Shown here in pieces: positions 9,521 to 36,655 of a DNA stretch of 64,000 nucleotides (its first letter is position 1; each line of letters opens with the position of its first letter). Origin of the DNA: a virus. The translations under genes and the position numbers were made by a program. A model generated the notes under the pieces. The model did no database searches. It saw only the letters and a list, made by a program, of their open reading frames with translations, and was not told the DNA's origin. The DNA is taken from IMG/VR virus record IMGVR_UViG_3300032307_000117, positions 11,892-75,891 of that record, one strand, 5' to 3'.

Positions 9521-12500
9521 CTAAACTACCTCACTTAAGTATGCCGTTATTTCTGGCCCTGATCCATTATTTGAATACTCTATATTGTATACCACAAACT
9601 TAGATTCTGGAGATAAAACCTGGTCTACGTTTGCATCCGACTTGTAATTAATATTTACAATATCTCCTAGCTGAAGTGTAGACGCACCAAATAGCCTAAT
9701 TCCAACGGCCATCCTTGGCTTCATGATTTTTGATATTATCCATCCCATCAAATCGTTAGCGTCATCCTGGGTTTGAATGTATGGAGTGTCAAGCGTGAAC
9801 TCTCTCTTGCCATATGTAATTCTGCTATTTTTTATGTCCTGGTATTCTTTCTTTTCTTTAATTGGAGAGATGACCAGGTTTGAGCCAACGGTTTGTGGAT
9901 TTGAAAAATCTCCACGCTTAGAGAAGTAGTCGTCTACTGTAAGCTCCTGTGGCGAAGACTGGGTAAAGGTAATGCCCTGAATTCTTAAGTAATTTCCAGT
10001 AGTCTCATCTAGGCTAATAGCAGTATCAGTAGAGTTAAAGATTAAGAACTCTGCACCATACGCACCAGGAATATAGCCAGATACTGTATATCCCTTTATG
10101 GAATTAAAAGTTGGTGAAATCTTTGAGTATAGAGCTGGATACGCCTTGTCATACTTTACGTTAAGGTATGAAGCTTCCCTCATAATAGTGCCAAACTCTT
10201 CAAAATACATATTGTATCTTGGCGGTTCGAGTGGGCTAATGCCAGAAAGATATGTTGACTGAATCATTCCACTCATAGCGTATTTTCTAAATGCTTCGTT
10301 TAAGTCTATCTCTGGATCTTGGAATGCAGAGTTAACTGGTGTATTTATAGATGCCCCAGTATTTTGACTATAGTTATTTGCAAGAGCATAAAGGTTTTCA
10401 AACATTACCCTGGATGATCCACGTACAAATAATCCCATGTTGTTGTAAACTGGTAGGGGATTTTCATCATCTACTGTGGCTACAAGCTTATTGTTGATGT
10501 ATAGGAAGAATCTTCTCTTTGTGCCTATGTTTTGATACTCTACTGCTAAATCGTAGACGGTTGGATTCTCTTCTCCAGTCATACGATACTGGCCAGTAAA
10601 AATTCCATTGTCTACAATTATCTTAGATAGTCCAGACCAAAGTTTAATCGGTAGGGCCTTATCGTCTCTCGTAAGCTCCCACTTGTAGTTTATCACTTCG
10701 TCAGTTTCTGGATCTGTGTAGCTTCCACCAATATTAGTAACAAGGTAGTAGCCATTTTGCTCTGTATTTGGAGCCTGATCCTCAACTAAAACCCTGTCTC
10801 CTATTTGTGCAGTATTTCCATTTATTATGAGCTCTTGTCCTGGAACCTTGCTTGTTAGGGTATTTACTTCATAAATTCCATCGATAGCAAATCCGCCAGT
10901 GTCATAGGTAAACGAAACATTTTCTTTTACTTTATAAAACACAATATTAAATATATCTGAAGTAGAAGAGTATGACTCTACGTTGTTTTCTGTTAGGGCA
11001 GCAATTTCAAAGTAGTAGCCAACATTTGTTTCTGGATTAACCATGACAGCTAGCCCGCCAGAAGCACCGCTAATATTTATATTTTGGTCTGGTGTATTAT
11101 TTGCAGATGATGTCTGACCATTATTGTTCTGGCTTTCTAGTGATTCCGATATACCGCCAGTTGCTGTGTAGTATGTTGTACTTCCAATAGGTGTCTGGCC
11201 ACGCACCCTGCTGTTTTCAATTTTACCAATAATGCGCATTCTTGTTCCAAAATGCCTAAATGATTTATTTAACGGCTTAAAAACATAAGAGATAAAGTCG
11301 ACTGGCTTTTCAGTTGTTGCAAAGGTTGGACCATTCATTACCAAGGCTGATGACTGAACTGTTCCACTTTGAGTAGAGTAAAGACTTGCTACATCTGACT
11401 CTTTAGAGAAGGAGTTGCTAAAGAAGTTTTTTATGATTCCGTTTCTTGTTGTCTTTTCTGCAAGAGTGTTGTTGACTCCAGCGTGACCAATATCGGATTC
11501 AAGCGCATCTGTGCCAGAGACTAGGTAGTTAAAGTCCATAGTGCAGCCACGAATATTTTGATTGCTTGACCAGTAGTTATCTAGTCCAGCTTTGTGAGCT
11601 ACTAGGTCGGTGCCAAACTGTTTTCTACCGTGCTTTGCAACAGGTCCATTTTGCAACCTAGTAATTCCGTTTATTATCTCATAGTTTGGCTCTGAGTAAA
11701 TTCTTACCAGTCCTGTTGGGTATATCTTTCCGTTAAACGGAATCTTTGAAAAGTAGTTCTGGTATTCTTGAGTGCTAGAAATCCAGACGTTATTCTCTAA
11801 CTGATTTGTTTCTGGATTAAATATTCCAGCTCCTGGTACGCTATATTGCACAGCATCATACCTTATAATTTCTCCATTAGCATAGAAGTAGCCGTTATAG
11901 CGTGTTATCCAATACACACCTTCTCCCAGATCCATAACGTTGTTGACCACTCTGTGATTTACAACCTGTGGCAAATCTGCAGCAAGATCTGAGTTAAGTG
12001 GTATTGCAGCTAAAACGTATGATGACTGATTGCTTGCCTCCTCATTGATTGATTTGGTGGCTTCTGTTCCGCTAATTTCCCAGAGTAGCGCTGGCTTATA
12101 AATCCAGGTTTTGTCTCTGTCAATCATGCTTGCTTGTTTTATTGAACTATATGACCTTTGAATGTATCTGGATGTATAGGTTATCTTTCCATCATTGTAT
12201 ACCAAATTTGGCTGGAATGAAATATCTTCAATGTTGGCAAGAGATGTGTTAGTTGCTTTATTCTTATATGCGCCCTCAGATATGCTGTCTTTAGATCCAT
12301 ATAGCGTCATATCGATTTCACGCTGGCCCTCGGATGGCAGAATGTATTCTTTGCTCATCATAACAAAATTGTTGTATTCGTCAAAGAACATGGCTGTCTG
12401 TGTTGATACCGCAATATTTTCTAATGCCTGTGCTATAGAGGTGTCTGGGCCAACGAAAAAGTATGGGATTACGACCTCTGTGTCTTCTTCGTTTCTTTTA

Positions 12501-14158: not shown

Positions 14159-14796
14159 TATACCTCTTCCAGGCTAAGAGATATGTTCCAAAAGTCATAG
14201 TTGCTGCCACCACGCTTAACAACCCCGTAAGAAAAGTCTGAAAAGAATACTTCGACAACTTCATTGTATTTCTGCAGGTTTGTGTATGAACCAGCATCTC
14301 TACCAAAATTTGTGTGCTTGTCGTATGCAAGGTATACCCAGAAAGATCCACTGTGTTTTTCGTACCAGTCTAGAATCTCTACTCCACCAGCACCACCATC
14401 TGAAGTAAATTCCTGAGTGTTGTTCTTGTAGTATTGAGATCTTCCCTCTTCATCAAATCCAGGATATGATGTGTACGATCTTGATGGCAACATATCCCAA
14501 GAAGCAGAAATCTCTAGCTTGTCAGCAATATGATAGGACCTCATCCTACCATTTACCATTCGTTTCCTGTTTTCAATTCTGTTTACGTTAAAGCCAAGCT
14601 CTGCCCTATTGTCGTCTGAAAGGATTAAGAATTGATCTAGATCTGATGCAGATGCACCCTCTGTTGTTTCTTGGTTAACCTCAAGACCGTTTGGCACATA
14701 GAAACCATCAATAATCGTTCCTGGATTGTCTGCAAATAGCAAGGCCTGTGGACGCTGATATCTTTTTCTACCAGACATGTATTCAAGGGTGGACAT
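14158..14796 (-). CDS. Distal tail (Dit-like) protein
   Basis: Directly after the TMP; RMVNGRMRSY and WNISLSLEEV. Confidence 0.7.
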   Translation of the reverse strand: MSTLEYMSGRKRYQRPQALLFADNPGTIIDGFYVPNGLEVNQETTEGASASDLDQFLILSDDNRAELGFNVNRIENRKRMVNGRMRSYHIADKLEISASWDMLPSRSYTSYPGFDEEGRSQYYKNNTQEFTSDGGAGGVEILDWYEKHSGSFWVYLAYDKHTNFGRDAGSYTNLQKYNEVVEVFFSDFSYGVVKRGGSNYDFWNISLSLEEV

Positions 14797-17700
14797 TAGA
14801 ACCTATTACCCCTGATTCTCTGAGAGTCAATTCTCTTAATCTGTGTCATTACATTCCTTGCAATTTGGTCTGCGTTAGCATCTGTTTGTACGTTTACGTT
14901 GATACTATAATTATACACTGATTCGCCAGAATATGTTCCGTTATTTATTGCCTTCATATTATCTAGGCCAAAGTTCTCAACAGCATACTTTCTCATTACA
15001 AATTCGCCAGGTGTTAGCATTGCTGGGACAATGTCGGTTCCGCCCTTGGCAAACTTTACGTTGGCTAGGCCTCCACCCGCAAACATCTTGGCAACATAGC
15101 CACCCTGGTTAAACTTAGCTGCATTAACCTTGCCAACATTAGAAATCTTATTCCACTTCTTGCCATCCCACTTCCAGGTTGCATTTGGACCAACCCAAAC
15201 CTCACCCTTCTTTTTCCCATCGTGATCTGGGCCTGGCCTTGTACCCTTAAATTCGGCATTTGGCTGGCCTGCAACTGGAGCCTGAGCCCCAGTGCCCTGA
15301 CTTACCAGAGGAACGTCAACCTGCGTTTCTCCTGGAGTAGCATTTTTCCATGCAGTCTTTAAGCTTTCTACCATTGCGATTGCATTAGAAATTGATTCAG
15401 TATAGCGAGTACTTCCAATTCTAGAGTTCTCTATTTCGGATTCGATTTGTTGCCAAGCTAGTCTAGTCTTATCCAAAACAGTTACGGAATCTATAAGGGC
15501 TTGTTTCTCGATGTCTGCTAATCTAATTCTTTCTTGTGCTGGCTCCAGCCTCTTTTCCTCTATAGCAAAGATTTCATCTTGCAACTTTTTAATCTCATCT
15601 TCTAGCTGCTTTCTAGTTTTGCCATTAGAAGATACTAGGGTCGCTAGCTCTTTCTCCTTTGAAAGCTCTAGGGCCTTTTGCTGAGCGTCTATGCTTGTTT
15701 GAGCCTGAGTAGCACGAAGATCTTGGGCTGCCTTTGCAGCTGCAGCAATATCTCCTCTAGATAGTGCATCTGCTACGGTAAGCTGAGCTTTTTGCTGAGC
15801 TACTAGGTCTGAGTTTATTTCTTTTATCTCACTCAGGGCCTTGCTACGGTCAGCGTACTTCTTGTTAACCACATCTTCCTGGTCTGCAATTTCCTTTATT
15901 CCAGCCTGAAGGTCATCAATTGTAAACGATATCTTATCGATATCATTCTGTGCAGCATCAATAATCTTTAGATCTGGCTGAGTCTTTACTTCAAAGTCTA
16001 GCTCTATCTTTCTTTCTTTTACTGAGATTGCATTCATTGCAGCATTAAAGCCTTCGTCAAACAGACCCTGTAAGAACTCTGGATTAAGGATTTGCTTTAC
16101 TCTAGCCTGAAGAAGCTTTTGATTTTTACCGCTCAGGAATAGCTCTGTGAGTGCTGAGTCGCTAAGAATTGCCTGTCTTTCTGCAAAGCTGTAAGAGCTC
16201 TTTTCAAGAGCGTTAGCAGCCTTAGCCAAGTTGTTTGCATCTTGTGCGGCTATCTGAACTGAGGCTACATTTTGGAATTCTTTTGTTGCAGCAGTTGCAG
16301 CCTTAGTATCTGCAATTAGCTTAGTAAGTGCAGATTCACTTATCTGCTTTCCAGCAAGCGCAGCTGCTACTCCAGCATTTTCAACAGCGTTGTAGGCCTC
16401 TTCTAGAGATAATCCTGCAGCTACTAGCCTGTTTACTGCAACAGTCTGGTCTTTTGTCTCTTGAATGGTTCTAGCCTGATTTAGCCCAAATTCACCAACT
16501 GCAATTCTAGCATAAGCGGCCTCTCTTCTCTTACCAGCCTTAGTAAGAATTGCTGTTCCATCTTTTCCTATTTGAACAAATTTCTTTCTAGCATCTTTGC
16601 CCATGCCCATAAGCTCATCAGCAAATGCTTCTGAAATGCCAGCTTTTGCAAGTTTTTGTCCAAGTCCGTCGAACACGTTTAGCTTAGTTCCATCGATTAC
16701 ACGCTTTAGCTCTTTTAGTCCACCGTTTGCATTAATTGATGCATTAGTTAGGTTCTTTAGCTTTTTAAGTGTGTCATCAATCCAGGTTGTCTTTTTAGCT
16801 CCTGCACCAGTAGTTGTTGTCTCTCCCTCAGTGTTGGTTCCAGTACCACCATCAGTTTCAGATGGTTGACCAAGGAATGCAGCCATCCGCTGTTCTGCAG
16901 TAATTCTAGACATTGCAGTTTCGCTTCTGATGTTTTTACCTGGGCCAACCGTGTAGTACCAAGCGTCAACGGCTGTCTGGTTGTATTTTCCAATTGCAAA
17001 GTCAACAATTAACTCTGCATTCATTGTTTTCTTTCCACCAGACAAGACATCCCAATTTGCAAGAACTGATTCCAGGATTCCCTTTGATGGACCAGCTGGC
17101 ATCGTAGATATGAAGTTTGTCAAGACTGTCTGAGTTACTTCCTTTGGAAGACCCTTTGTGTCCTTTACTAGATTTCCGATAACTTCAGTGTTTTCGGCAG
17201 TTATTTCAACGCCTATACCATATTCACTCTGCATGCTGTTTAGTTCAGCAAGTGCCTTTAGGTTATAGTCTATGTCTGCTTTATCTTTAGTAACAAGGCT
17301 AAAGACGGCCTCGTACTCTTTACCTTCAACCCCTGCGGCATTTAGTAATTGAATTACCTGGTTTGAATCTGCAGTTCCAACTGCTTTTACCATTAGATTA
17401 AACTTAGAGCTGATATTGCCGTTAGATTCTTTATTAGCATTAATGAGGTTTGAAATAGTGACTGGATCAAATTCGCCGCTTGCCAAACCTATCTGAAGCG
17501 TTGTCTTAAAGTCTCCCTGCTCCAACCCAGCCAGCGAACTCTTCGCTAGATCAGCAGCTGCCTTCATGGCTCCAGTTGCATTTGCAAATCTTGAATCAAT
17601 CGCCAAGTTTATTGAGTCTGTGAAGCCAGATCCCATTATTCTTGCTTGCTCTACTAGAGAATCAAATACCGCTGCATTTGCTGCTTTTTGTTTTGCCAGC

Positions 17701-20700
17701 CCAGCATTTCTTTCAGCAATCTTATCGCTAATCTGCTTCTCTATGGCAAGTCTTTCTTTTCTAGTTGTTGCAGCTTCTTTTTCTGCCTCAAGCTGGGATA
17801 TCTGACCGTCGTACTGTCTTTCTAGAGAATCTAGCAATCCCTGGTTTTGTGCAATTTGTTCTGCACCAAGCTGTACGGCTACGCCACGAGCCTTGTTGTT
17901 TTCTTCCTGATCTCCGAGTGCCTCTACTCCTAGGGTTGCACCAGCTGCAGCAACACCTCCAGAAATAAGTCCGATACCAAGAAGACCACCAATACCAGTT
18001 GCAGTTAGGGCTGCCCCAACGGCTGTCATAATTCCAGCACCGATTAGGTTGCCTACAGAACCACCAGATACCTCGGCATTCTTTTTCATTAATTCTATTG
18101 AGTTGTCAAAAGCCTTGTTTTGCTGTGCAAGAGAATCTTTTTGGATTGCCAAAGAAATTTCTATTGGATCTCCATTAAGAAGGTTCTCTCCGTTTGGACC
18201 AAAAAGCTGTGTTAACTTTCCACCGATGTTTGCGCTTATAGAATAGTCTCCGAGTTTTTCTGAAAGCCCAAACGCAATACTTCTAGCCTGTTGGTCAGTT
18301 ATTGCACCCTGCATTATTGCATAAGAAAGTTGGCTAGCAATGCTTGAGGCAACTTCTGCACTGCTCATTCCAGATGTTGTCATTGCCTCTGCATCGGAAA
18401 GCAGCTTCTTTCCAGCCTGAGATTCTAAGAAGTTTTGTCCGAACTCTCTCTTCTTTGCACCTTGACCACTTAGCTGTTTTTCTCTTTGTCTTTCGGCAAT
18501 TTGACTTGCTGTTACTTTTCCAGTAATCTCAGACATTTCGTTAAGCTTTTCGCTTGTCATTGCCATAGACTTACCAGCCTCTAGCCCAGCCTTAGTGGCA
18601 TCTGATAGCTTAGTGGTTAGATAAATAATTCCTGCAGCTAAAGCCCCAACTGCAACTAGTGCCAAACCTATTTTATTTGCAATCATAGGAAGCATCATTA
18701 ATGGTAGCGAGGCCATTCCAGCTAAGTCTGACGCTGGGCCTCCAGTCATGCTGTACATCATAGCAGCGGTACCAGCAAGCATGCCAACTCCGCCTACACG
18801 ACCAGCCATAGATCTCTTTCCTGCTGTGGCTGGTTCTGTTGGATCAAGATCGGCTGGGGCCGTTCCAGTTCCTGGAGCTCTAACTCCAGTAGCTGCTGCA
18901 ATTGCTCTTCTAGCTGCATCGCCAAAGCCCTGCTTTAGATTGCCAGCAAGACCTCTTGATGACTTTTGGGTAAGCTCAACCTGAACTGGCTCAGCTGTAT
19001 TTGGTAGCGTACCTCCAGGTGCCGTCTTTCCTTTTACGTATCCAGGTACGTTATCGGCAATCATAGAATTAATTAGTGGTGCATACTTCTTTGACATTTG
19101 AGCTGGTATTACAGCTTCTCCTGGAGAAAGCATTGCTGGAACGATGTCCCCAGCACCCTTTGGGCCTGGAACAGACACTACGCCCTTATTAAAGGCAAAG
19201 CCTCTTCTTCTAAAGAATGCCTTAAAGAAATTAGTATTTGGAGACTTAGCATATTCAAGGTTTTCTTTAGATCCTGGGAACTGCTTAGCCAGTGGCCTCA
19301 TTGGTATCCCAATTGGCTTTCTTTCCAGCCCCTTGCTCTTAAAGCCAGGAAGGTCTTTGTTTCTTATTTCGGCTGGTGAAGTTTGTGATCTTTTAAAGAT
19401 GTACTGTAAATCTTTAGTTCCTGCTGGCAAACGCTTTTTGGCTAAGTCATAAATTCTTTCCATACTTATGGCTTTGACACCTTTACTTTCTAAGTATCTG
19501 GCTGATGCTTCAGAATCTACTACCTTTGTTCCTTGCGGAAGATCGTCTAAAATTTTAGTGATGGTGTCATCAAACATCTTCGTCTGAGGAGCTAAAGCAG
19601 CTGGGTCTCCTCCGCCAAAAATAATAGAGCGATCCCATTTAGAAATGCCAGATCTTCTGAATTCTCTAAGTAATGCATCCTTGTCTGCTCCCTTTGCATA
19701 CTTAATTGACCCATCTGAATTTTGCCCTTCTGCCATTTGAGCATTTAGTCTTACTAGCTTTCCATCTGGCCCTATTTCTTTGTTTTCTATGTCAAAACCA
19801 AAGCCACTCTTTAGGTCTAACATTGTAGCATTTGGATCGGCAACTGTTTGCAAAGCTCTTTTTTGACTAGGAGAAAGCTTAAGTATTCCCTGATCAGATA
19901 GCCTTAATGCTTCTGCAGCAGATATTTTTGTTCCAGATCCGATATGAGCAAATTCTTTTTTAATTGAAAAAGCTTGTATGCCCATAGCTTCTCTGAAAGA
20001 TTTCTTTAAGACTCCTGATCCTAGCTTAGTTCCACTCTGGTTTGCAGTTAAAATTAATGAGTCTATGGCTCTAAGAGTTTTTTGAGCACCTAGCTGTGTT
20101 TTTGATTCATTTGCAGCATCGCTCATTATAGATGCAGCATCTTGGCTACCGATATTTGCCTGTGCTAATTTTGCAAGAATTTGTCTACCAATGTCAGCAG
20201 ATCCTGCAGCATCAAACATGGCTAAGCTTGTTGGGACAGTTCTATAGCTTCTGCCACCACTATAGGTGTATCCTAGAAGCTCAGAATATTTCTTTTGCTG
20301 GGAGCCAGTTAGGTTAAGATCACGGAATACCGCTCTATCTTGGTCAGTAAGGGCTAGTGCTGCACCTATCGTTCCACTCATCAATCCCTGGAAAAGTCCA
20401 GACTGAGAACCGCCTGGTACAGAGGCGATGCCCTTGCTATATCCTGGAACCCCAAGCTTTTTAAATAGCCTTGCTATAAAGCCAGGCCCTGTAACACGGA
20501 TTGAGCCAAGACCTGCAGATTTTAATTCTGACTTGATCTGCTTTGCCATTGCTGGATTGCTAGCAATTACCTTTTCAATTTCGGCAAATCCAAATCCACC
20601 AGGAGTATATGTTTCTACGTATGGAGATCTTGGATTAGTGGTGTACTGGTTCTTAGTTCCTGGAGTTAGGTTGCTGCCAAAGGGCATTCCCAGTCTTTCA

Positions 20701-23453
20701 AAAGAACTTAGTTGTCCAGCTGATGCGCCTCGCATTGGAGCAATCTGGAATGTGCCTCGGCCACCTGAGCTTTTTGCTCTATAGTAATCCATCAGGATAT
20801 CACCAGGGTATGCAGAAGACCTTCTTGCAACAGAACCCTTAGTTATAAGATCTATATCTCCATACATACCCAAAGATTTATCTGTTGGCTTTCTGGTAAG
20901 GGCATTAAAGTTTCTTCCCTTAATTCCAAACAGTGAATTAACTATTGACTGAAGAACAGAAGTTTTTGCATATCCGTATGTAGGCCTAGCAGATCCTGAA
21001 GTAGTCTTGGGATCTAGACCAAAAACATCGGACTCCATTTTTGCACGAAGCTTTTGCTGCTTTGGGTTTTGGCGACCATACTTTGTGAGGTAATCTGCCC
21101 CGCTTTGTGTGTCAAATGCGCTTTGATATCTTGCATTCTTTCCTTGTGACTGTAGAGCACTTATAAAGTTTCCTGAACCCATCCTTACAGCAACTCTGGA
21201 TTTACCTAGCATCGATGCAAATGGATTTCGTCCAAAAGCAAAGCCAGGAACGTTGTCGGCAATAAGAGATGAAATAATTCCACTGTACTTTTGGGATTGT
21301 CTTGCAGGAATAACTGCTTCTCCTGGTGAAAGCATGGCTGGCACAACATCTCCAGCCCCCTTAGGACCTGGAACAGAAAGAATTCCACGTGCATATCCTG
21401 GTATGCCATCAATGGTTCCCTGTGGTGACTGAGCTCTTCTGCCTCCAGGAATTCTAGTTATTGGCGGTGCAATAGAAATTCTTTGATTTGCGGCAGCCGC
21501 ATTCATTGCTAGCTGTGCTCTAGTTGCTGCCTGATAAACTCCAATTAGCTGAGTTAGGGCTGCTGCCTCAGAAGTGAAGGTTTGCTTAAGCATTGCATGA
21601 GATTGATTCAAAGATGCTGCTACGGCTGCTGCTTCCAGCTGCTCTTGGGTCATGTATTGGGTTGCAGATCCTAGCTCTGTAGAAGACCCAGACAATCTTT
21701 GATAGAATAACCTTAAGGCATTAAATCCCTTTGCCAGGTTTGCAACACCGTTGGCAACTAGACCTATAGTCATAAGAGCCGCTGGCGCAATTAATCCCAA
21801 TGTTGTAATAAGTCCAGTTACAAAGGCTTTTCCGCCTTCGCTCATATTGTTAAACTGTTTTAGTAGCGATGTTCCAAAATCAATAATTGGTGTAACAAGC
21901 TTAATAAACTGTTCTCCAAATGGGGCAAGAGATGCCTGAAGATCTTCCATTGCTTTCTTAAACTTGTAAGCTGGAGAATCCTCTAGTCTCTTTAATTCTC
22001 GCTCTGAAAGTATCGCAAGCTCTTCTGCGGTTGCCTTAGATAGCTGAAGAACACGGCTTGCCTGATTTCCTTGTCCAATTACGTTTTGAAATAGTGTTGA
22101 AATACGTGAAAATTGGAACTTACCGAATAGCTGCTCAATTGCTCTAGCACGGTTTAGAGGATCTAGCGTATCCAATGCATTAGCAAAATCAATGACTAGA
22201 CCTTTTACGTCGCCCTTATTTGACTCTACAATATTTTTTACATTTATTCCAAATTGAGCCAGCATTTCTGCAGCTTTGCCAGTTGGATTAATTAAAGAGG
22301 CAAGACCAGACTTAAGTGCGTTGGCACCTTCAGAGGCATTAATTCCACCTTCTTTCATGGCGGTTAGGAAAAATGCTAAGTCCTCGACGTCTCCACCCAG
22401 CTGTTGAACTACTGGACCAGCTTTTGGAATGGCAATAGTTAAGTCTTCAATACTTACAACAGTTTGGTTTTCAACAGCGTTAAGAAAGTCTGTTTTTCTT
22501 GCAAGATCTTCGGTTGCAACACCAAAAGCACTAGTTAAAGATATTGTAGTTTTTAGTGCTTCTTGCTGTTCTACCCCACCCAAAACGGCAAGTCTTGTTG
22601 CCTCTGCAACCTGAGCTGTTAATCCTGCGCCCATTTGACCCATTGCTGCAGCATCGGCTGCTAGCTCCATAGTCTTTTCTACGGCAACACCATATTTTGT
22701 AAACTCATTTGCAAGGTCTCTAATACCAGCCAAAGCCTTTTCTGTTTCAGCAGTGGTTGTAAACATTTCACCATAAACACGTCTAAAACGAATTGCCTGC
22801 TCTTCGAGCTTCATAAATGTCTTAGAGGCAACAGTCCCAAGCATTGTAAGAGGAATAGTAAAACCAACCATAAGCTGGCGACCAGCCCACTGAGTATTTT
22901 TACCCCAGTTTAAAAGATTTGTAGATCCTTGCTTTACAAGCTGATTGAATAGTTGCTGCTTCTGAGCAGTCATGGCTGTCTGGGTAGCCAAGTTATTCAT
23001 ATCTAGAACAAGTGGTCTAACGTTAATTGCCTGAAGGGCACCGCTAGCATCACGACCCATCTTAATGTATTGGGTCTGAAGAGTCTTTACTCTTTCTCTA
23101 GATACCTTTTCAATTGTGTCAAACTCGGATCTGAATAGTCGTCCGAATGTTTTTGTAGATGCCCCAGCGTACCTAAAGTACTCTCCCATAGAGAGCTTGT
23201 TCTTTTCCAGGGCATTGGTAAAAGATTCTGTAGTGCTTTTTATTGTAGAAAGATTGGCAGAAAACTTGCCAGTAGCATTAATAGAGTCAACAAGACTCTT
23301 CTGCATGTTTCTGGACATAGCAGCATTAGCTGCATTTCCAGATGCTTGCATTTGTGTGTGAAAGGCCGAAATCTGACGCTGCAGATTTTTAATACTTGCC
23401 AGAGCTGACGAAGTATCAATATCTATTCTAATATTGGCTTCAGAATCAGCCAT
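14796..23453 (-). CDS. Tape measure protein with internal cargo domains
   Basis: 2885 aa; TP901-type core (GGINASEGANALKSGL), hydrophobic segments, coiled coils, three VPAML(S/T)PGE modules. Confidence 0.95.
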   Translation of the reverse strand: MADSEANIRIDIDTSSALASIKNLQRQISAFHTQMQASGNAANAAMSRNMQKSLVDSINATGKFSANLSTIKSTTESFTNALEKNKLSMGEYFRYAGASTKTFGRLFRSEFDTIEKVSRERVKTLQTQYIKMGRDASGALQAINVRPLVLDMNNLATQTAMTAQKQQLFNQLVKQGSTNLLNWGKNTQWAGRQLMVGFTIPLTMLGTVASKTFMKLEEQAIRFRRVYGEMFTTTAETEKALAGIRDLANEFTKYGVAVEKTMELAADAAAMGQMGAGLTAQVAEATRLAVLGGVEQQEALKTTISLTSAFGVATEDLARKTDFLNAVENQTVVSIEDLTIAIPKAGPVVQQLGGDVEDLAFFLTAMKEGGINASEGANALKSGLASLINPTGKAAEMLAQFGINVKNIVESNKGDVKGLVIDFANALDTLDPLNRARAIEQLFGKFQFSRISTLFQNVIGQGNQASRVLQLSKATAEELAILSERELKRLEDSPAYKFKKAMEDLQASLAPFGEQFIKLVTPIIDFGTSLLKQFNNMSEGGKAFVTGLITTLGLIAPAALMTIGLVANGVANLAKGFNALRLFYQRLSGSSTELGSATQYMTQEQLEAAAVAASLNQSHAMLKQTFTSEAAALTQLIGVYQAATRAQLAMNAAAANQRISIAPPITRIPGGRRAQSPQGTIDGIPGYARGILSVPGPKGAGDVVPAMLSPGEAVIPARQSQKYSGIISSLIADNVPGFAFGRNPFASMLGKSRVAVRMGSGNFISALQSQGKNARYQSAFDTQSGADYLTKYGRQNPKQQKLRAKMESDVFGLDPKTTSGSARPTYGYAKTSVLQSIVNSLFGIKGRNFNALTRKPTDKSLGMYGDIDLITKGSVARRSSAYPGDILMDYYRAKSSGGRGTFQIAPMRGASAGQLSSFERLGMPFGSNLTPGTKNQYTTNPRSPYVETYTPGGFGFAEIEKVIASNPAMAKQIKSELKSAGLGSIRVTGPGFIARLFKKLGVPGYSKGIASVPGGSQSGLFQGLMSGTIGAALALTDQDRAVFRDLNLTGSQQKKYSELLGYTYSGGRSYRTVPTSLAMFDAAGSADIGRQILAKLAQANIGSQDAASIMSDAANESKTQLGAQKTLRAIDSLILTANQSGTKLGSGVLKKSFREAMGIQAFSIKKEFAHIGSGTKISAAEALRLSDQGILKLSPSQKRALQTVADPNATMLDLKSGFGFDIENKEIGPDGKLVRLNAQMAEGQNSDGSIKYAKGADKDALLREFRRSGISKWDRSIIFGGGDPAALAPQTKMFDDTITKILDDLPQGTKVVDSEASARYLESKGVKAISMERIYDLAKKRLPAGTKDLQYIFKRSQTSPAEIRNKDLPGFKSKGLERKPIGIPMRPLAKQFPGSKENLEYAKSPNTNFFKAFFRRRGFAFNKGVVSVPGPKGAGDIVPAMLSPGEAVIPAQMSKKYAPLINSMIADNVPGYVKGKTAPGGTLPNTAEPVQVELTQKSSRGLAGNLKQGFGDAARRAIAAATGVRAPGTGTAPADLDPTEPATAGKRSMAGRVGGVGMLAGTAAMMYSMTGGPASDLAGMASLPLMMLPMIANKIGLALVAVGALAAGIIYLTTKLSDATKAGLEAGKSMAMTSEKLNEMSEITGKVTASQIAERQREKQLSGQGAKKREFGQNFLESQAGKKLLSDAEAMTTSGMSSAEVASSIASQLSYAIMQGAITDQQARSIAFGLSEKLGDYSISANIGGKLTQLFGPNGENLLNGDPIEISLAIQKDSLAQQNKAFDNSIELMKKNAEVSGGSVGNLIGAGIMTAVGAALTATGIGGLLGIGLISGGVAAAGATLGVEALGDQEENNKARGVAVQLGAEQIAQNQGLLDSLERQYDGQISQLEAEKEAATTRKERLAIEKQISDKIAERNAGLAKQKAANAAVFDSLVEQARIMGSGFTDSINLAIDSRFANATGAMKAAADLAKSSLAGLEQGDFKTTLQIGLASGEFDPVTISNLINANKESNGNISSKFNLMVKAVGTADSNQVIQLLNAAGVEGKEYEAVFSLVTKDKADIDYNLKALAELNSMQSEYGIGVEITAENTEVIGNLVKDTKGLPKEVTQTVLTNFISTMPAGPSKGILESVLANWDVLSGGKKTMNAELIVDFAIGKYNQTAVDAWYYTVGPGKNIRSETAMSRITAEQRMAAFLGQPSETDGGTGTNTEGETTTTGAGAKKTTWIDDTLKKLKNLTNASINANGGLKELKRVIDGTKLNVFDGLGQKLAKAGISEAFADELMGMGKDARKKFVQIGKDGTAILTKAGKRREAAYARIAVGEFGLNQARTIQETKDQTVAVNRLVAAGLSLEEAYNAVENAGVAAALAGKQISESALTKLIADTKAATAATKEFQNVASVQIAAQDANNLAKAANALEKSSYSFAERQAILSDSALTELFLSGKNQKLLQARVKQILNPEFLQGLFDEGFNAAMNAISVKERKIELDFEVKTQPDLKIIDAAQNDIDKISFTIDDLQAGIKEIADQEDVVNKKYADRSKALSEIKEINSDLVAQQKAQLTVADALSRGDIAAAAKAAQDLRATQAQTSIDAQQKALELSKEKELATLVSSNGKTRKQLEDEIKKLQDEIFAIEEKRLEPAQERIRLADIEKQALIDSVTVLDKTRLAWQQIESEIENSRIGSTRYTESISNAIAMVESLKTAWKNATPGETQVDVPLVSQGTGAQAPVAGQPNAEFKGTRPGPDHDGKKKGEVWVGPNATWKWDGKKWNKISNVGKVNAAKFNQGGYVAKMFAGGGLANVKFAKGGTDIVPAMLTPGEFVMRKYAVENFGLDNMKAINNGTYSGESVYNYSINVNVQTDANADQIARNVMTQIKRIDSQRIRGNRF

Positions 23454-33067: not shown

Positions 33068-36000
33068 TTATGCTGGGTCTGTCACGCTAGACTCTAAAAG
33101 AACGTTTCTAAGGACGTTGTATTGATAGTTTTTGAGCCTAAAAGTATTAGAGGTGTTTGTATCTACCTTTAAATCGTCCACAATTATCTTATTTGTTCCA
33201 GTGTAAGCCTTGTAAATGTTAGAGGCATTCAGACCAAGGAAGCTGGCAGACGAGATAACAAGAACATCGTTCCAGGTAAAGGAGTCTAGCCAGTATTCCC
33301 AGGTTCTATCTAGTGGATCAGTTGTGCTGGACTTAACTCTTAGCCATGGCCTAGACACGGTCACCTGGACCTCCTGGAGGCTTGTAGACTGATAATAGGA
33401 TACATTGTTGATAAGAACATCCCCCGTAATTCTAAAGGCTCCCTGGTAGTTCTTAAAGTCGATGGTTTGAGAGAAGCTAATCCCTAGCATAGCCCATTCA
33501 TCTACAGAGATCATAGGGTTCTTGGCAGCATTTCCATTTACATAAAATACTATTCCGTCCTCTACCATTCCAGTATTTGCATTTATAGCGTAGATTCTTC
33601 CACGTTTTCTGTCTGGTTGAGAAGAAACAACGTAGAACTTTATATATGTGCTCCTACCCTGTATCTCAAAGATTTCTCTAGCTTGCTCAGGAAATAGGCC
33701 CTGATTCTGTAGAATAGCCAATTGAGCTGCAATAATTCTATAGTTTGTAGCAAGGTTTTCGTTTATCGGAATAGATAGCCCTCTACTTACTCCAGGCTCT
33801 TCTGGACCCCTAAGCTGAATACCGCTGTTTTTTGTCAGGTATAGGTAGGGTGTGCTGCCCTTGTAAATACTAATTGGATTTCTTTCCTTGTAAGAAAAAT
33901 ATACGCCATATTTCTTGTATGGAAACATCTTTGCTCCAAATCTTGTACCAATCGGATTTGGGGAGACCTCATTAAATGACTGAGAGGCAAGCTGTAGCTT
34001 TTTGATTTTTACTGGCTGTGTCAAAATACCTTCGCTTTGCAGCTCTATGTGAACGACAATTTGTAGGTCATTAAAGTTTATGCCACTTGGCATATAAATG
34101 ACTGAATTGTCTACAACCTCATACTTTGTATTAAATATGCTTGAGTCTGGAATAACTATCCCATCGGCTGGCAACAATCTGGTATTTGTAAAAGACTTAA
34201 ATGGTGCATTTGGAGACTGAAGATATTGGAATGTTATGTAGGTCTTTACCAATGCGTCGGATGTGTCATAGTATTGCTGTCCCTCTAGCTCTACCGTTTT
34301 TGTCACGGCTGGGTAATTAATATTGAGCTGAATAAAGTCTAGGTCGTAATAGCTGTCACCATTAACATCTGTGACAAATTTTGCAAAGTATGTAAGTGGC
34401 AGGTAATCTTCCCAATAAGAGTCAGTAGCTATATCTAGGATTAGCTTGTTAAATATTATTTTAGGAACCAGAGTATAGCTTGCTGTATGAGCATCAGTGC
34501 TTATTACAGATCCAGACTCGTAAGATCCTCCGTCTGTTATTGTTGGCCATTCAGTAGTGTTGTAGCTACCGCCATCAAGATCTGTTAGCTCATTAAATGG
34601 GTCTCCGAAATCGTTAAAAATATCGTTATAGGGAATAAGGCCATTGTCATTAAAGGCATCGTATATCTTATCTAAGTTTCTTTCCGAACAAATAGCGACC
34701 TTATAGATCTTGCCGCTGAAAGTATTTGTAAGGTCTTTATTGCCACCAACGTATAGTTTTAGCCCATCCTTGTTACCAAAGAATGACAATAGGTTGCCGC
34801 CTACTGACTCTGCAAACCGTTTTATGTCAAAGCCTACGGAAAACTCTGTGCCCTCAACATACTGGTTTGATGTTGTAAGAATATTCTGCTCTGCACCCTG
34901 TCCAAATTTTAGCTTGTATACAACTTCTCTATCTACGAGACTTACTGTCAGGTAATTATTTGTTAGCTCATTTACTAGCTGTAGCAGTACCTGTTCAGAT
35001 GGGGATGCTTCCATAAACTTGAATATGCCATATACTGCTTTTGGATCTTGACCTATTAGATTTAGGCTAGGGAACAATATGTGACCCTGTGAGCTATCCC
35101 AGTCTGAATCTGGCCTAAGGCTTATAAATGTCTTTAGGTCATCTTGGGCAGCTAGGCAATCTGCGTACCAGTCACTACTAGGGTTATTTCTAAATACTAT
35201 TTCTGGCAACGAGTAAGATGGGGAAGACAGTGTGTTGTTTTGTACAGAAACGTTCTCCTGAACTCCCTGACTCCATCTACCAATATCTGGATACAAATAG
35301 TTATTTGCATAATCTGCAAATGGATAATCTATAAATACAGATGTTCCACTATATGCGGTGTTAATGTTTTCTGGAAATTCCACACCCTGGCCATACACCC
35401 ACCTTCTTTTAGCAACAATTGCTGGAACAGAATATGGGTAAAGAGCCACACAGTCTATTTCTATTGGGTCTACGTCATCATATGCATAGAATCCTAACCA
35501 GTCTTGGCTTCTTCCAAACTCGTCAAATTCTTTTGGTAGCTGTAGATTGGCAGTATCTACGTCAAGGAATAGAACTTCTTCTCCGTTTATCATAAGGCTG
35601 GCAGAATTATTAAGAACTCTAATATTAATAAGCATTGGCCTAAACCATTCCCCGACAAAGTGCGAAGAAAATGCATCTCCAACCTTCAGAGTTATAAACG
35701 GCCCATCTACATAAAGTCCATCTGTAGATGCTATTGGTCCAAAGATTCTTTTATTTTCTGTAGTATTGGAGTTTAGTCTTAGCCACATCTCCATGGTATA
35801 TTCTTTATATTGACCAACATCATTCAAGAATCCAGATCCAGGAATTATTAAGGATGGACCGTCTGGATTTGGGGAAATCTTTGTAACGCTAGATGCCCCA
35901 TAAACCAATGGTACACCAGAGTTTTTTGCAAACAAAAAGTTATCTTTTGCTAAATAGTATCCAGGCAGATCCTGCAATCCATAAGCCCTTGCTTCAATTC

Positions 36001-36655
36001 CATGACTCATAGACAGAGCAATATTCTTGTCCGATAAGTCTTCTAAGTCTACCCCCAAAGAGCTTGTGCTAAAGTTCTCTGACCACTGCCCTAGAGTTAA
36101 TCCATTTATCAAAAACGGATACTCTGTAATTTCTGGGGTCGCTTCATATTTAAGCTTAAGAATTATTCTTATTCCCTCAGTGGTTTCTGGGATTTCAAAG
36201 GTCTCTGATAAAAATATCCAGCGATTAAATATGCTGCTAACAAAGCTCTTTGTTTGTGTAACTGTATCTAGTGTATCTGGATCTGTATACTCGTATCCAA
36301 GCTCAAAGCCACTGACTAGCGGAGTTTCTGGATATACGTATACCCCAATAGAAAATGTGCCAAGATCCTGATTCATTTGTGGTACTGGGAATCCCTCGTT
36401 TTTAAAGCATACCACTTCTGGATCTGCGGGAGACCCAATAACCCTGCTTACAACACTATTAATAAAAGGCTCGTCAGAAATTGTTTCTGGTCCAGTCGCC
36501 TCTCCATTAACAATGCCCCATTCGGTTTCATTAAAAAACTGGCGGTCTTGCTCGTTAATAAAAGACACAAAATCTGCCTTGTCATCTAGAGACCATAAAG
36601 CCGTAGGATGCTCTGCGAACACCTTTTCAGCATAGAGGTTTGATGGAGATGACAT
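33068..36655 (-). CDS. Large virion protein with LamG/concanavalin-like domains
   Basis: HPTALWSLDD, YTMEMWLR, IDCVALYPY LamG-type signatures. Confidence 0.7.
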   Translation of the reverse strand: MSSPSNLYAEKVFAEHPTALWSLDDKADFVSFINEQDRQFFNETEWGIVNGEATGPETISDEPFINSVVSRVIGSPADPEVVCFKNEGFPVPQMNQDLGTFSIGVYVYPETPLVSGFELGYEYTDPDTLDTVTQTKSFVSSIFNRWIFLSETFEIPETTEGIRIILKLKYEATPEITEYPFLINGLTLGQWSENFSTSSLGVDLEDLSDKNIALSMSHGIEARAYGLQDLPGYYLAKDNFLFAKNSGVPLVYGASSVTKISPNPDGPSLIIPGSGFLNDVGQYKEYTMEMWLRLNSNTTENKRIFGPIASTDGLYVDGPFITLKVGDAFSSHFVGEWFRPMLINIRVLNNSASLMINGEEVLFLDVDTANLQLPKEFDEFGRSQDWLGFYAYDDVDPIEIDCVALYPYSVPAIVAKRRWVYGQGVEFPENINTAYSGTSVFIDYPFADYANNYLYPDIGRWSQGVQENVSVQNNTLSSPSYSLPEIVFRNNPSSDWYADCLAAQDDLKTFISLRPDSDWDSSQGHILFPSLNLIGQDPKAVYGIFKFMEASPSEQVLLQLVNELTNNYLTVSLVDREVVYKLKFGQGAEQNILTTSNQYVEGTEFSVGFDIKRFAESVGGNLLSFFGNKDGLKLYVGGNKDLTNTFSGKIYKVAICSERNLDKIYDAFNDNGLIPYNDIFNDFGDPFNELTDLDGGSYNTTEWPTITDGGSYESGSVISTDAHTASYTLVPKIIFNKLILDIATDSYWEDYLPLTYFAKFVTDVNGDSYYDLDFIQLNINYPAVTKTVELEGQQYYDTSDALVKTYITFQYLQSPNAPFKSFTNTRLLPADGIVIPDSSIFNTKYEVVDNSVIYMPSGINFNDLQIVVHIELQSEGILTQPVKIKKLQLASQSFNEVSPNPIGTRFGAKMFPYKKYGVYFSYKERNPISIYKGSTPYLYLTKNSGIQLRGPEEPGVSRGLSIPINENLATNYRIIAAQLAILQNQGLFPEQAREIFEIQGRSTYIKFYVVSSQPDRKRGRIYAINANTGMVEDGIVFYVNGNAAKNPMISVDEWAMLGISFSQTIDFKNYQGAFRITGDVLINNVSYYQSTSLQEVQVTVSRPWLRVKSSTTDPLDRTWEYWLDSFTWNDVLVISSASFLGLNASNIYKAYTGTNKIIVDDLKVDTNTSNTFRLKNYQYNVLRNVLLESSVTDPA

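Follow-up and report, generated by a model that had tools for sequence, protein, structure and literature searches.

A predicted SopF-type ADP-ribosyltransferase domain embedded in the tape measure protein of a freshwater siphovirus

The tape measure gene and its embedded domain

We studied a 64,000-nucleotide stretch of viral DNA (the window), positions 11,892 to 75,891 of IMG/VR record IMGVR_UViG_3300032307_000117, and within it a tape measure gene that carries a putative enzyme domain. The parent record is a linear virus sequence of 75.9 kb and is about 70% complete. The gene (14796..23453) is a single uninterrupted open reading frame (ORF) encoding a protein of 2,885 residues, P0001, and all features located below lie, as it does, on the minus strand. 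Residues 738-1010 (20424..21242) form a domain that, by AlphaFold2 modelling, Foldseek and VIA structure comparison and hhalign profile alignment, almost certainly belongs by homology and fold with the ADP-ribosyltransferases of the SopF/DUF3626 type.

The carrier was recognised as a tape measure of the PF10145 / TP901 family by its PhageMin_Tail domain (Pfam PF10145, residues 246-444, E 1e-23), its length, its gene position and its C-terminal element. Tape-measure PHROGs cover residues 8-666, with E-values down to 1.6e-94. The structural block runs from portal to capsid protein, Ig-domain tail protein, two small chaperone-like ORFs, tape measure and minor tail proteins, which is the standard siphovirus arrangement. 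The nearest cultured phages are Streptomyces phages of the Stanwilliamsviridae, about 128 kb in size, with a portal identity of 47%. The tape measure of one of these, Muntaha (2,088 residues), could be aligned to residues 59-620 of P0001 only, and it contains neither the bracketing elements described below nor the ADP-ribosyltransferase domain. No genes for WhiB, Macro or MuF (PF04233) proteins were found in the roughly 70%-complete record, and PF04233 was likewise not found in P0001. Elsewhere in the window, a 1,195-residue ORF at 33068-36655 (minus strand), between the portal region and fibre-like genes, had no PHROG match at E 1e-5.

The first-pass annotation of the window had proposed a DUF3626-like domain at 20430-21230 on the strength of eight short motifs. 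All eight were found in the claimed order and within that span, at residues 753-962 (20568-21197): RVAVRM (residues 753-758), RYQSAFDTQSG (775-785), MESDVFG (806-812), RPTYGY (823-828), YGDIDL (864-869), RRSSAYPGD (877-885), PYVETYTPGG (944-953) and EIEKV (958-962). The phage record holds one copy of the domain. Outside it, the domain is present in 107 giant tape measure proteins, at 26-75% identity and E-values from 1e-189 to 2e-8, and when 1.84 billion cluster representatives were searched exhaustively with phmmer, only 44 clusters were found to have it. Nearly all of these are proteins of 2,000-3,400 residues; the short homologues are fragments from contigs of about 1.5 kb. The conservation of the domain is far beyond chance. 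No tape-measure form was detected in 50,697 cultured phage records by tblastn, either with the window domain or with its distant homologue L006, no prophage relatives were found in 185,579 species genomes, and a single-protein scan of viral contigs returned nothing.

Relationship to DUF3626 and SopF

Searched as a single sequence, the domain had no match in PHROGs, NCBIfam or PADLOC, or in the PDB by phmmer. The Pfam model of DUF3626, PF12294, matched nowhere in the phage record, and the ESM Atlas gave weak leads only (score <=0.84), a DUF3626 virus cluster ranking fourth. Six IMG/VR loci (L001-L006) supplied further domain-only sequences. Among these distant tape-measure copies, L006 scored 26.5 bits against PF12294 (E 4e-6), for which the gathering score is 27 bits, and L004 scored 17.4 bits (E 0.0024). 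A profile of seven tape-measure domains (A2) was then compared with 5.8 billion sequences and retrieved three stand-alone proteins, P0133 (E 9e-14), P0134 (3e-9) and P0135 (7e-5), all of which lie above the PF12294 threshold (45, 29.6 and 37.1 bits, respectively). In hhalign, A2 matched these three with 99.15% probability (E 3.8e-19). It also matched 14 chromosomal DUF3626 proteins, mostly from Actinomycetota, with 97.97% probability (E 2.7e-13), over 182 columns that run from the first strand to the domain end.

Genuine DUF3626 proteins carry GRYRSQFETGTS, R..WE..LFG, RPKYG, RFG, RTTF..DS and YIEA.VHG, which is the pattern that the first-pass annotation had given for the family. Its claim of DUF3626 homology was confirmed by profile and fold (hhalign 98-99%; SopF as top structure), though PF12294 itself has no match. 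Since the domain falls below the PF12294 threshold although it is homologous by profile, we file it as a sister clade and not as a Pfam-defined member: judged from these alignments, it is a divergent branch of the same superfamily that current family models leave unannotated.

Classical DUF3626 proteins, which stand alone and come from Actinomycetota and some Pseudomonadota (for example Amycolatopsis, Nocardioides and Photobacterium), share with the tape-measure clade the motif order YxxxFET, R..E..FG, RPxYG, [YF]G, R[ST]T..DS, Y[IV]E and GG/HG. They differ in having an invariant FHPD in beta-1, which the tape-measure clade lacks, a C-terminal extension with a W-H motif, and Phe at the position of the second Tyr, where SopF and the tape-measure clade have Tyr. 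In the tape-measure clade, about 22 helical residues are inserted between the two Tyr. Classical DUF3626 genes (L007-L086) are common in the chromosomes of Actinomycetota (Amycolatopsis, Nocardioides, Catellatospora, Nesterenkonia and others), and a few were seen in Photobacterium, Shewanella, Corallococcus, Nitrospira and Planctomycetota.

The fold of the domain was predicted with AlphaFold2 from an alignment (A1) of the window domain, placed first, and 37 full-length homologues. The model reached a predicted local distance difference test score (pLDDT) of 88.8 and a predicted template modelling score (pTM) of 0.84. In a Foldseek search of the PDB the top matches were the SopF-ARF1 entries 7DN8 and 7DN9 (E 1.2e-6 and 3.2e-6), followed by DarT toxins (E 5e-4 to 5e-3). 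The VIA aligner also ranked SopF first (Z 11.5, 184 residues at 3.4 A), with model residues 1-253 on SopF 120-374. Below it came DarT (Z 8.6-9.8), the tRNA 2'-phosphotransferase Tpt1 (7.3), OspC3/CopC (6.2) and CteC (5.5), and the next structural matches after SopF are all ADP-ribosyltransferases. Of the DUF3626 proteins only SopF has been characterised (PMC6682159); it is a diphtheria-toxin-like ADP-ribosyltransferase with an 'I-Y-E' triad (PMC10333799). Structure searching, which the first-pass annotation had proposed as a check, thus returned SopF rather than an absence of DUF3626 or ADP-ribosyltransferase matches, and the ADP-ribosyltransferase fold that it had predicted stands, with SopF the best solved match by both Foldseek and VIA.

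The more specific assignment to the R-S-E class of ADP-ribosyltransferases, made from an early-strand Arg and a late Y-x-E, was not supported. The Arg in question, R757, is variable: it is not kept in the wider clade, the alignment showing N for L005 and SopF and T for P0135, and it is aligned two positions ahead of the beta-1 His of classical DUF3626. The R-S-E toxins (pertussis, LT, Scabin and C3) reached Z scores of only 2-3.5, compared with 7-11.5 for SopF, DarT and Tpt1, and SopF is itself an I-Y-E enzyme. By contrast, the late Y-x-E proved apt, its Glu (E947) aligning with SopF E325. Because the evidence from fold and from sequence converges, we place the domain in the SopF/DarT (H-Y-E-like) branch and not in the R-S-E class.

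The active site of SopF has been described in detail. E325 touches the N-ribose of NAD+, Y224 and Y240 touch the nicotinamide, and mutation of any of the three largely blocks activity (bioRxiv 10.1101/2024.03.28.587227; PMC11937434). Residue numbers of the crystallised chain differ by 69 from those of SopF, and the 224/240/325 spacing is matched by its Y155 (in SRPIY), Y171 (in SAYGK) and E256 (in NYIEAHI). In the NAD-bound entry 7DN9 an Asp stands at the E325 position, the Glu having been changed by the depositors. A profile of 14 classical DUF3626 sequences (A7) aligned to SopF with E 1.1e-11, placing RPkYG...RFG...YvEaqvHG on the SRPIY, SAYGK and NYIEAHI segments, and hhalign put the same DUF3626 columns on RPTYGY, MYGDIDL and YVETYT of the window domain. 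Because the two alignments share these columns, three residues can be read as the likely counterparts of those in SopF: Y826 in RPTYGY (20976..20978) of Y224, via classical DUF3626; Y864 in MYGDIDL (20862..20864) of Y240, aligned to SAYGK; and E947 in PYVETYT (20613..20615) of the catalytic E325, aligned to NYIEAHI. All three are invariant in the 107 homologues, and they are also kept in loci of 26-38% identity and in the three stand-alone proteins retrieved with A2. Further residues invariant in the 107 homologues are R803, E807, R823-P824, G865, R878 and D885.

Reaching SopF by sequence depended on the profile. The combined profile A3 reached it in the PDB (E 2e-6), as did A7, whilst neither A2 nor a profile of three DUF3626 sequences (A4) did so by itself. 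HMMER with A3 placed RPTYG on P198-Y199-G200 of SopF. We rejected this placement by a spacing argument, which A7 confirmed by setting RPkY on RPIY224. Classical DUF3626 proteins and SopF have an identical 16-residue spacing from the Tyr to the aromatic residue, with GG in between.

Near-identical DNA was present in two freshwater metagenomes of another study, whose contigs over the domain are about 93-98% identical to it. Of 24 strain differences in or beside the domain, 22 were synonymous and the remaining two conservative (V962I and I904T). The domain is thus under purifying selection.

Bracketing elements and variable cargo

The domain is bracketed by repeats of an element that belongs to the end of the protein. 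An element of about 50 residues (SVPGPKGAGDVVPAMLSPGE...DNVPG) lies upstream of the domain, recurs at residue 1420 and appears in variant form at the true C-terminus. In a three-copy alignment, internal copy 1 (SVPGPKGAGDVVPAMLSPGEAVIPA...DNVPG) spans residues 686-737 (21243..21398) and forms the upstream bracket, and internal copy 2 spans residues 1420-1474 (19032..19196). The canonical C-terminal element (DIVPAMLTPGEFV...) spans residues ~2795-2850 (14904..15071). Comparison with PHROGs showed that the bracketing element, like internal copy 2 and the canonical copy, matches several tape-measure PHROGs in their C-terminal parts.

A short motif, [IVL]PG[FYW]xxG, marks the junctions. It occurs as VPGFAFG directly before the domain (residues 735-741, 21231..21251) and as VPGYSKG just after it (residues 1002-1008, 20430..20450), where G1008 is invariant. 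A motif scan placed other copies at residue 684 (21384-21404) and residue 1469 (19029-19049). Four copies were thus observed in P0001 against 0.01 expected. Of 123 tape measures, 100 have the motif closely preceding the domain and 88 have it closely following. The motif may serve for processing or as a hinge, or be left over from recombination.

The position of the domain is not fixed. Among relatives its start varies from residue 720 to residue 2776, mostly beside a copy of the element, examples being P0118-P0122, P0033, P0035, P0110 and P0128. Sometimes the ADP-ribosyltransferase cassette is the sole insert between two modules, which in P0110 lie at residues 693 and 1000. Within tape measures the domain has the character of a mobile cassette.

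In the window a second insert follows it, a folded domain at residues 1011-1425 (19179..20423) with a helical part and an alpha/beta part (AlphaFold2 pLDDT 80.8). It is common to 9 of 107 relatives only, and is variable cargo. No Pfam, PHROG or PADLOC match was found for it. No solved structure matched it above background: the best VIA match (Z 6.2) was confined to the helical part, Foldseek gave E > 0.3, and the alpha/beta part was barely covered. Both inserts lie between two hydrophobic segments identified in a Kyte-Doolittle scan, one N-terminal to them (residues 542-573, 21735..21830) and the other C-terminal (residues 1582-1617, 18603..18710).

Metagenome contigs touch this region in several ways. 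In runs X2 and X3 the ADP-ribosyltransferase region was covered and no contig lay over the second insert (19202-20413); this is a gap only, with no sign of other cargo. In run X1 a contig joint from 19142 to 21612 was discounted: the record that gives it is 88% alike, has one side of 36 letters and probably represents another phage. In all three runs, many extra contigs matched about 90 bases of module 2 (19102-19193, encoding DxVPAMLSPGE) at 85-90% identity, raising depth there to 34-69 compared with 5-11 nearby. These extra contigs run on into unrelated sequence, so many different phages in the same waters share module-2 DNA.

Proposed function, alternatives and known systems

On balance we consider it probable that residues 738-1010 are a globular, NAD-using ADP-ribosyltransferase that the tape measure carries into the host, where it modifies a host macromolecule. 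The tape measure would fill the tail lumen and leave the tail ahead of the DNA, so that a few copies per virion enter the host. The domain would refold there, perhaps after excision at the flanking VPG[FY]xxG junctions, and would use cytoplasmic NAD+ to ADP-ribosylate a host protein or nucleic acid in the service of host take-over or counter-defence. Injection by the tail is something we infer from general knowledge of tape measures, and the proposed function would by analogy parallel that of T4 Alt and of the toxins fused to MuF head proteins.

Several observations weigh against this proposal. PF12294 does not match either the whole of P0001 or the domain at E <= 1. The invariant beta-1 His (FHPD) of classical DUF3626 is absent, the tape-measure clade having V-R-M-[GRQP]-S; SopF, an active enzyme, likewise lacks it (I-N-F-N-A), so the His is not required for SopF-type activity. 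The residue mapping comes from sequence and profile alignments and not from structural superposition. SopF requires a host cofactor, an ARF GTPase, bound on its N-terminal domain (PMC10333799). The insert has no counterpart of that cofactor domain, the VIA match covering SopF 120-374 only. NAD+ is cytoplasmic, and the arrival of this part of the tape measure in the cytoplasm is uncertain. Finally, three in-register folded domains of 30 kDa would be too large for the lumen of a siphovirus tail, and passage would require unfolding or a staggered arrangement.

The fold of the domain leaves room for other chemistry in a tail-delivered, NAD-using enzyme, which could act on DNA in the manner of DarT or on RNA in that of Tpt1, or simply hydrolyse NAD+. 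The sequence names no target, and the structural neighbours next after SopF act on nucleic acids (DarT at VIA Z 8.6-9.8 and Foldseek E 5e-4 to 5e-3, Tpt1 at Z 7.3). However, homology at the sequence level is limited to DUF3626 and SopF, the PADLOC defence models do not match the domain, and SopF modifies a protein side chain (PMC10333799). We thus hold such chemistry to be unlikely. It is improbable that the domain has lost catalysis and serves as a structural or binding module, whether as a plug, as a checkpoint in assembly or in binding the envelope. The NAD-contacting Tyr, Tyr and Glu and five further motif residues are invariant in 107 sequences down to 26% identity, strain variation is almost all synonymous, and SopF is active although it has no beta-1 His. 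These facts sit poorly with a loss of function that the missing classical His might otherwise suggest. Tail lumens are, as is generally known, narrow for folded enzymes. Tape measures tolerate many non-enzymatic inserts, and the second insert in P0001 has no recognisable enzyme fold, which would fit a purely structural role.

An active enzyme might also work late in infection, in the producing cell and as part of freshly synthesised tape measure protein, and not follow ejection into a new host. Synthesis takes place in NAD+-rich cytoplasm before the protein is threaded into tails, and the sequence does not separate the two timings. Against this, the domain is almost exclusively fused within tape measures, and its DUF3626 relatives are fused to other virion-internal proteins, as expected if packaging mattered, and we consider late action very improbable. 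As for a coincidental motif match or a chimeric assembly, the Pfam, NCBIfam and direct single-sequence PDB searches were indeed empty. Profile E-values of 1e-13 to 1e-19, concordant fold matches and recurrence of the same fusion on >100 independent contigs and in two other metagenomes refute that explanation, to which we attach next to no probability.

A broader view, which we put forward tentatively and with some doubt, is that the tape measures of this large freshwater siphovirus lineage are modular platforms for effector delivery. Enzyme cassettes would occupy slots bounded by copies of the C-terminal element and VPG[FY]xxG junctions, the SopF-type ADP-ribosyltransferase and the 415-residue second insert being examples of cargo. 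Recombination would swap cassettes between phages, and the cargo would be threaded unfolded through the tail and released in the cytoplasm ahead of the DNA. Such a platform would be a tail-lumen counterpart of type VI secretion system or MuF polymorphic toxins.

If an active SopF-type enzyme does reside in the protein of the tail lumen, then the tape measure would be seen to reach the cytoplasm and deliver catalytic cargo, and it would offer a testable case for the storage of a folded enzyme in a 4-nm tube and its passage through it. A family known only from one effector of an animal pathogen would be linked to a wide, unannotated phage reservoir of >100 tape measures, of which Pfam detects none. 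It would also provide a functional lead for the DUF3626 proteins of Actinomycetota and of the model phages TP901-1 and L5.

SopF, an effector of Salmonella, is the closest characterised system. The tape-measure domain resembles it in superfamily, in fold, in the predicted equivalents of Y224, Y240 and E325 and in the missing classical beta-1 His, at an identity of about 15%. It differs in that SopF has an N-terminal ARF-binding and membrane-targeting region, for which the tape-measure insert has no counterpart, and is secreted by a type III system, whereas the tape-measure domain is embedded in a phage tail protein. The target of SopF, subunit c of the eukaryotic V-ATPase, has no evident relevance to a bacterial host. 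The DarT (DUF4433) toxins, which ADP-ribosylate DNA, are the second-best structural neighbours, but they have no match at the sequence level, and the phage record contains no DarG-like macrodomain partner.

Related domains are also borne on head proteins of cultured phages. ORF33 of Lactococcus phage TP901-1 (L087:580-2274) combines Phage_Mu_F with DUF3626 (27.6 bits), and gp9 of Mycobacterium phage Tierra (L088:1688-3871), annotated as 'capsid maturation protease and ADP-ribosyltransferase', combines VG15 with DUF3626 (35.7 bits). Aligned by hhalign to the tape-measure clade, they gave 97.8% (E 1e-12) and 97.2% (E 4e-11), respectively. Predicted viral structures agree, among them a DUF3626 protein of a Nodularia phage, large proteins of Bacillus phages and one labelled 'minor capsid protein'. 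Weak DUF3626 matches were also seen in gene 2 of mycobacteriophage L5 and its relatives (E 2e-6 to 8e-4). Toxins fused to MuF, ADP-ribosyltransferases included, have been proposed to enter the host along with the DNA, in an account that does not mention tape measures (PMC5576092). The tape-measure domain has in common with ORF33, gp9 and the MuF toxins an enzyme family placed on a virion protein thought to enter with the DNA. In ORF33 and gp9, however, the domain is a C-terminal appendage of a head protein, whereas here it is internal to a tape measure and bracketed by repeats. The cassette may be functionally like the MuF polymorphic toxins though it is no member of that class, its carrier being a PF10145 tape measure without PF04233.

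With T4 Alt the likeness is one of proposed logic, a ready-made ADP-ribosyltransferase delivered with the genome before phage genes are expressed. Alt is of the R-S-E class and is a separate protein packaged in the head, and we saw no homology to the domain beyond the general fold. Tape measures with embedded enzymes include Tmp of mycobacteriophage TM4, with a peptidoglycan-hydrolase motif, and T5 Pb2, with a peptidase domain. These too place an enzymatic domain in a tape measure for use at entry, but they act without a cofactor on the cell wall, outside the cytoplasm, whilst an NAD-dependent transferase must reach the cytoplasm. To our knowledge, the enzyme domains within tape measures are cell-wall hydrolases, and the virion-borne ADP-ribosyltransferases we know of ride in the head (T4 Alt and MuF fusions). 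A full-text literature search for 'tape measure protein' together with 'ADP-ribosyltransferase' returned no report of such a fusion in the titles and abstracts from which it was mainly judged. As DUF3626 domains already occur on head proteins of cultured phages, what is new is that the domain here lies within a tape measure, in the form of a mobile cassette.

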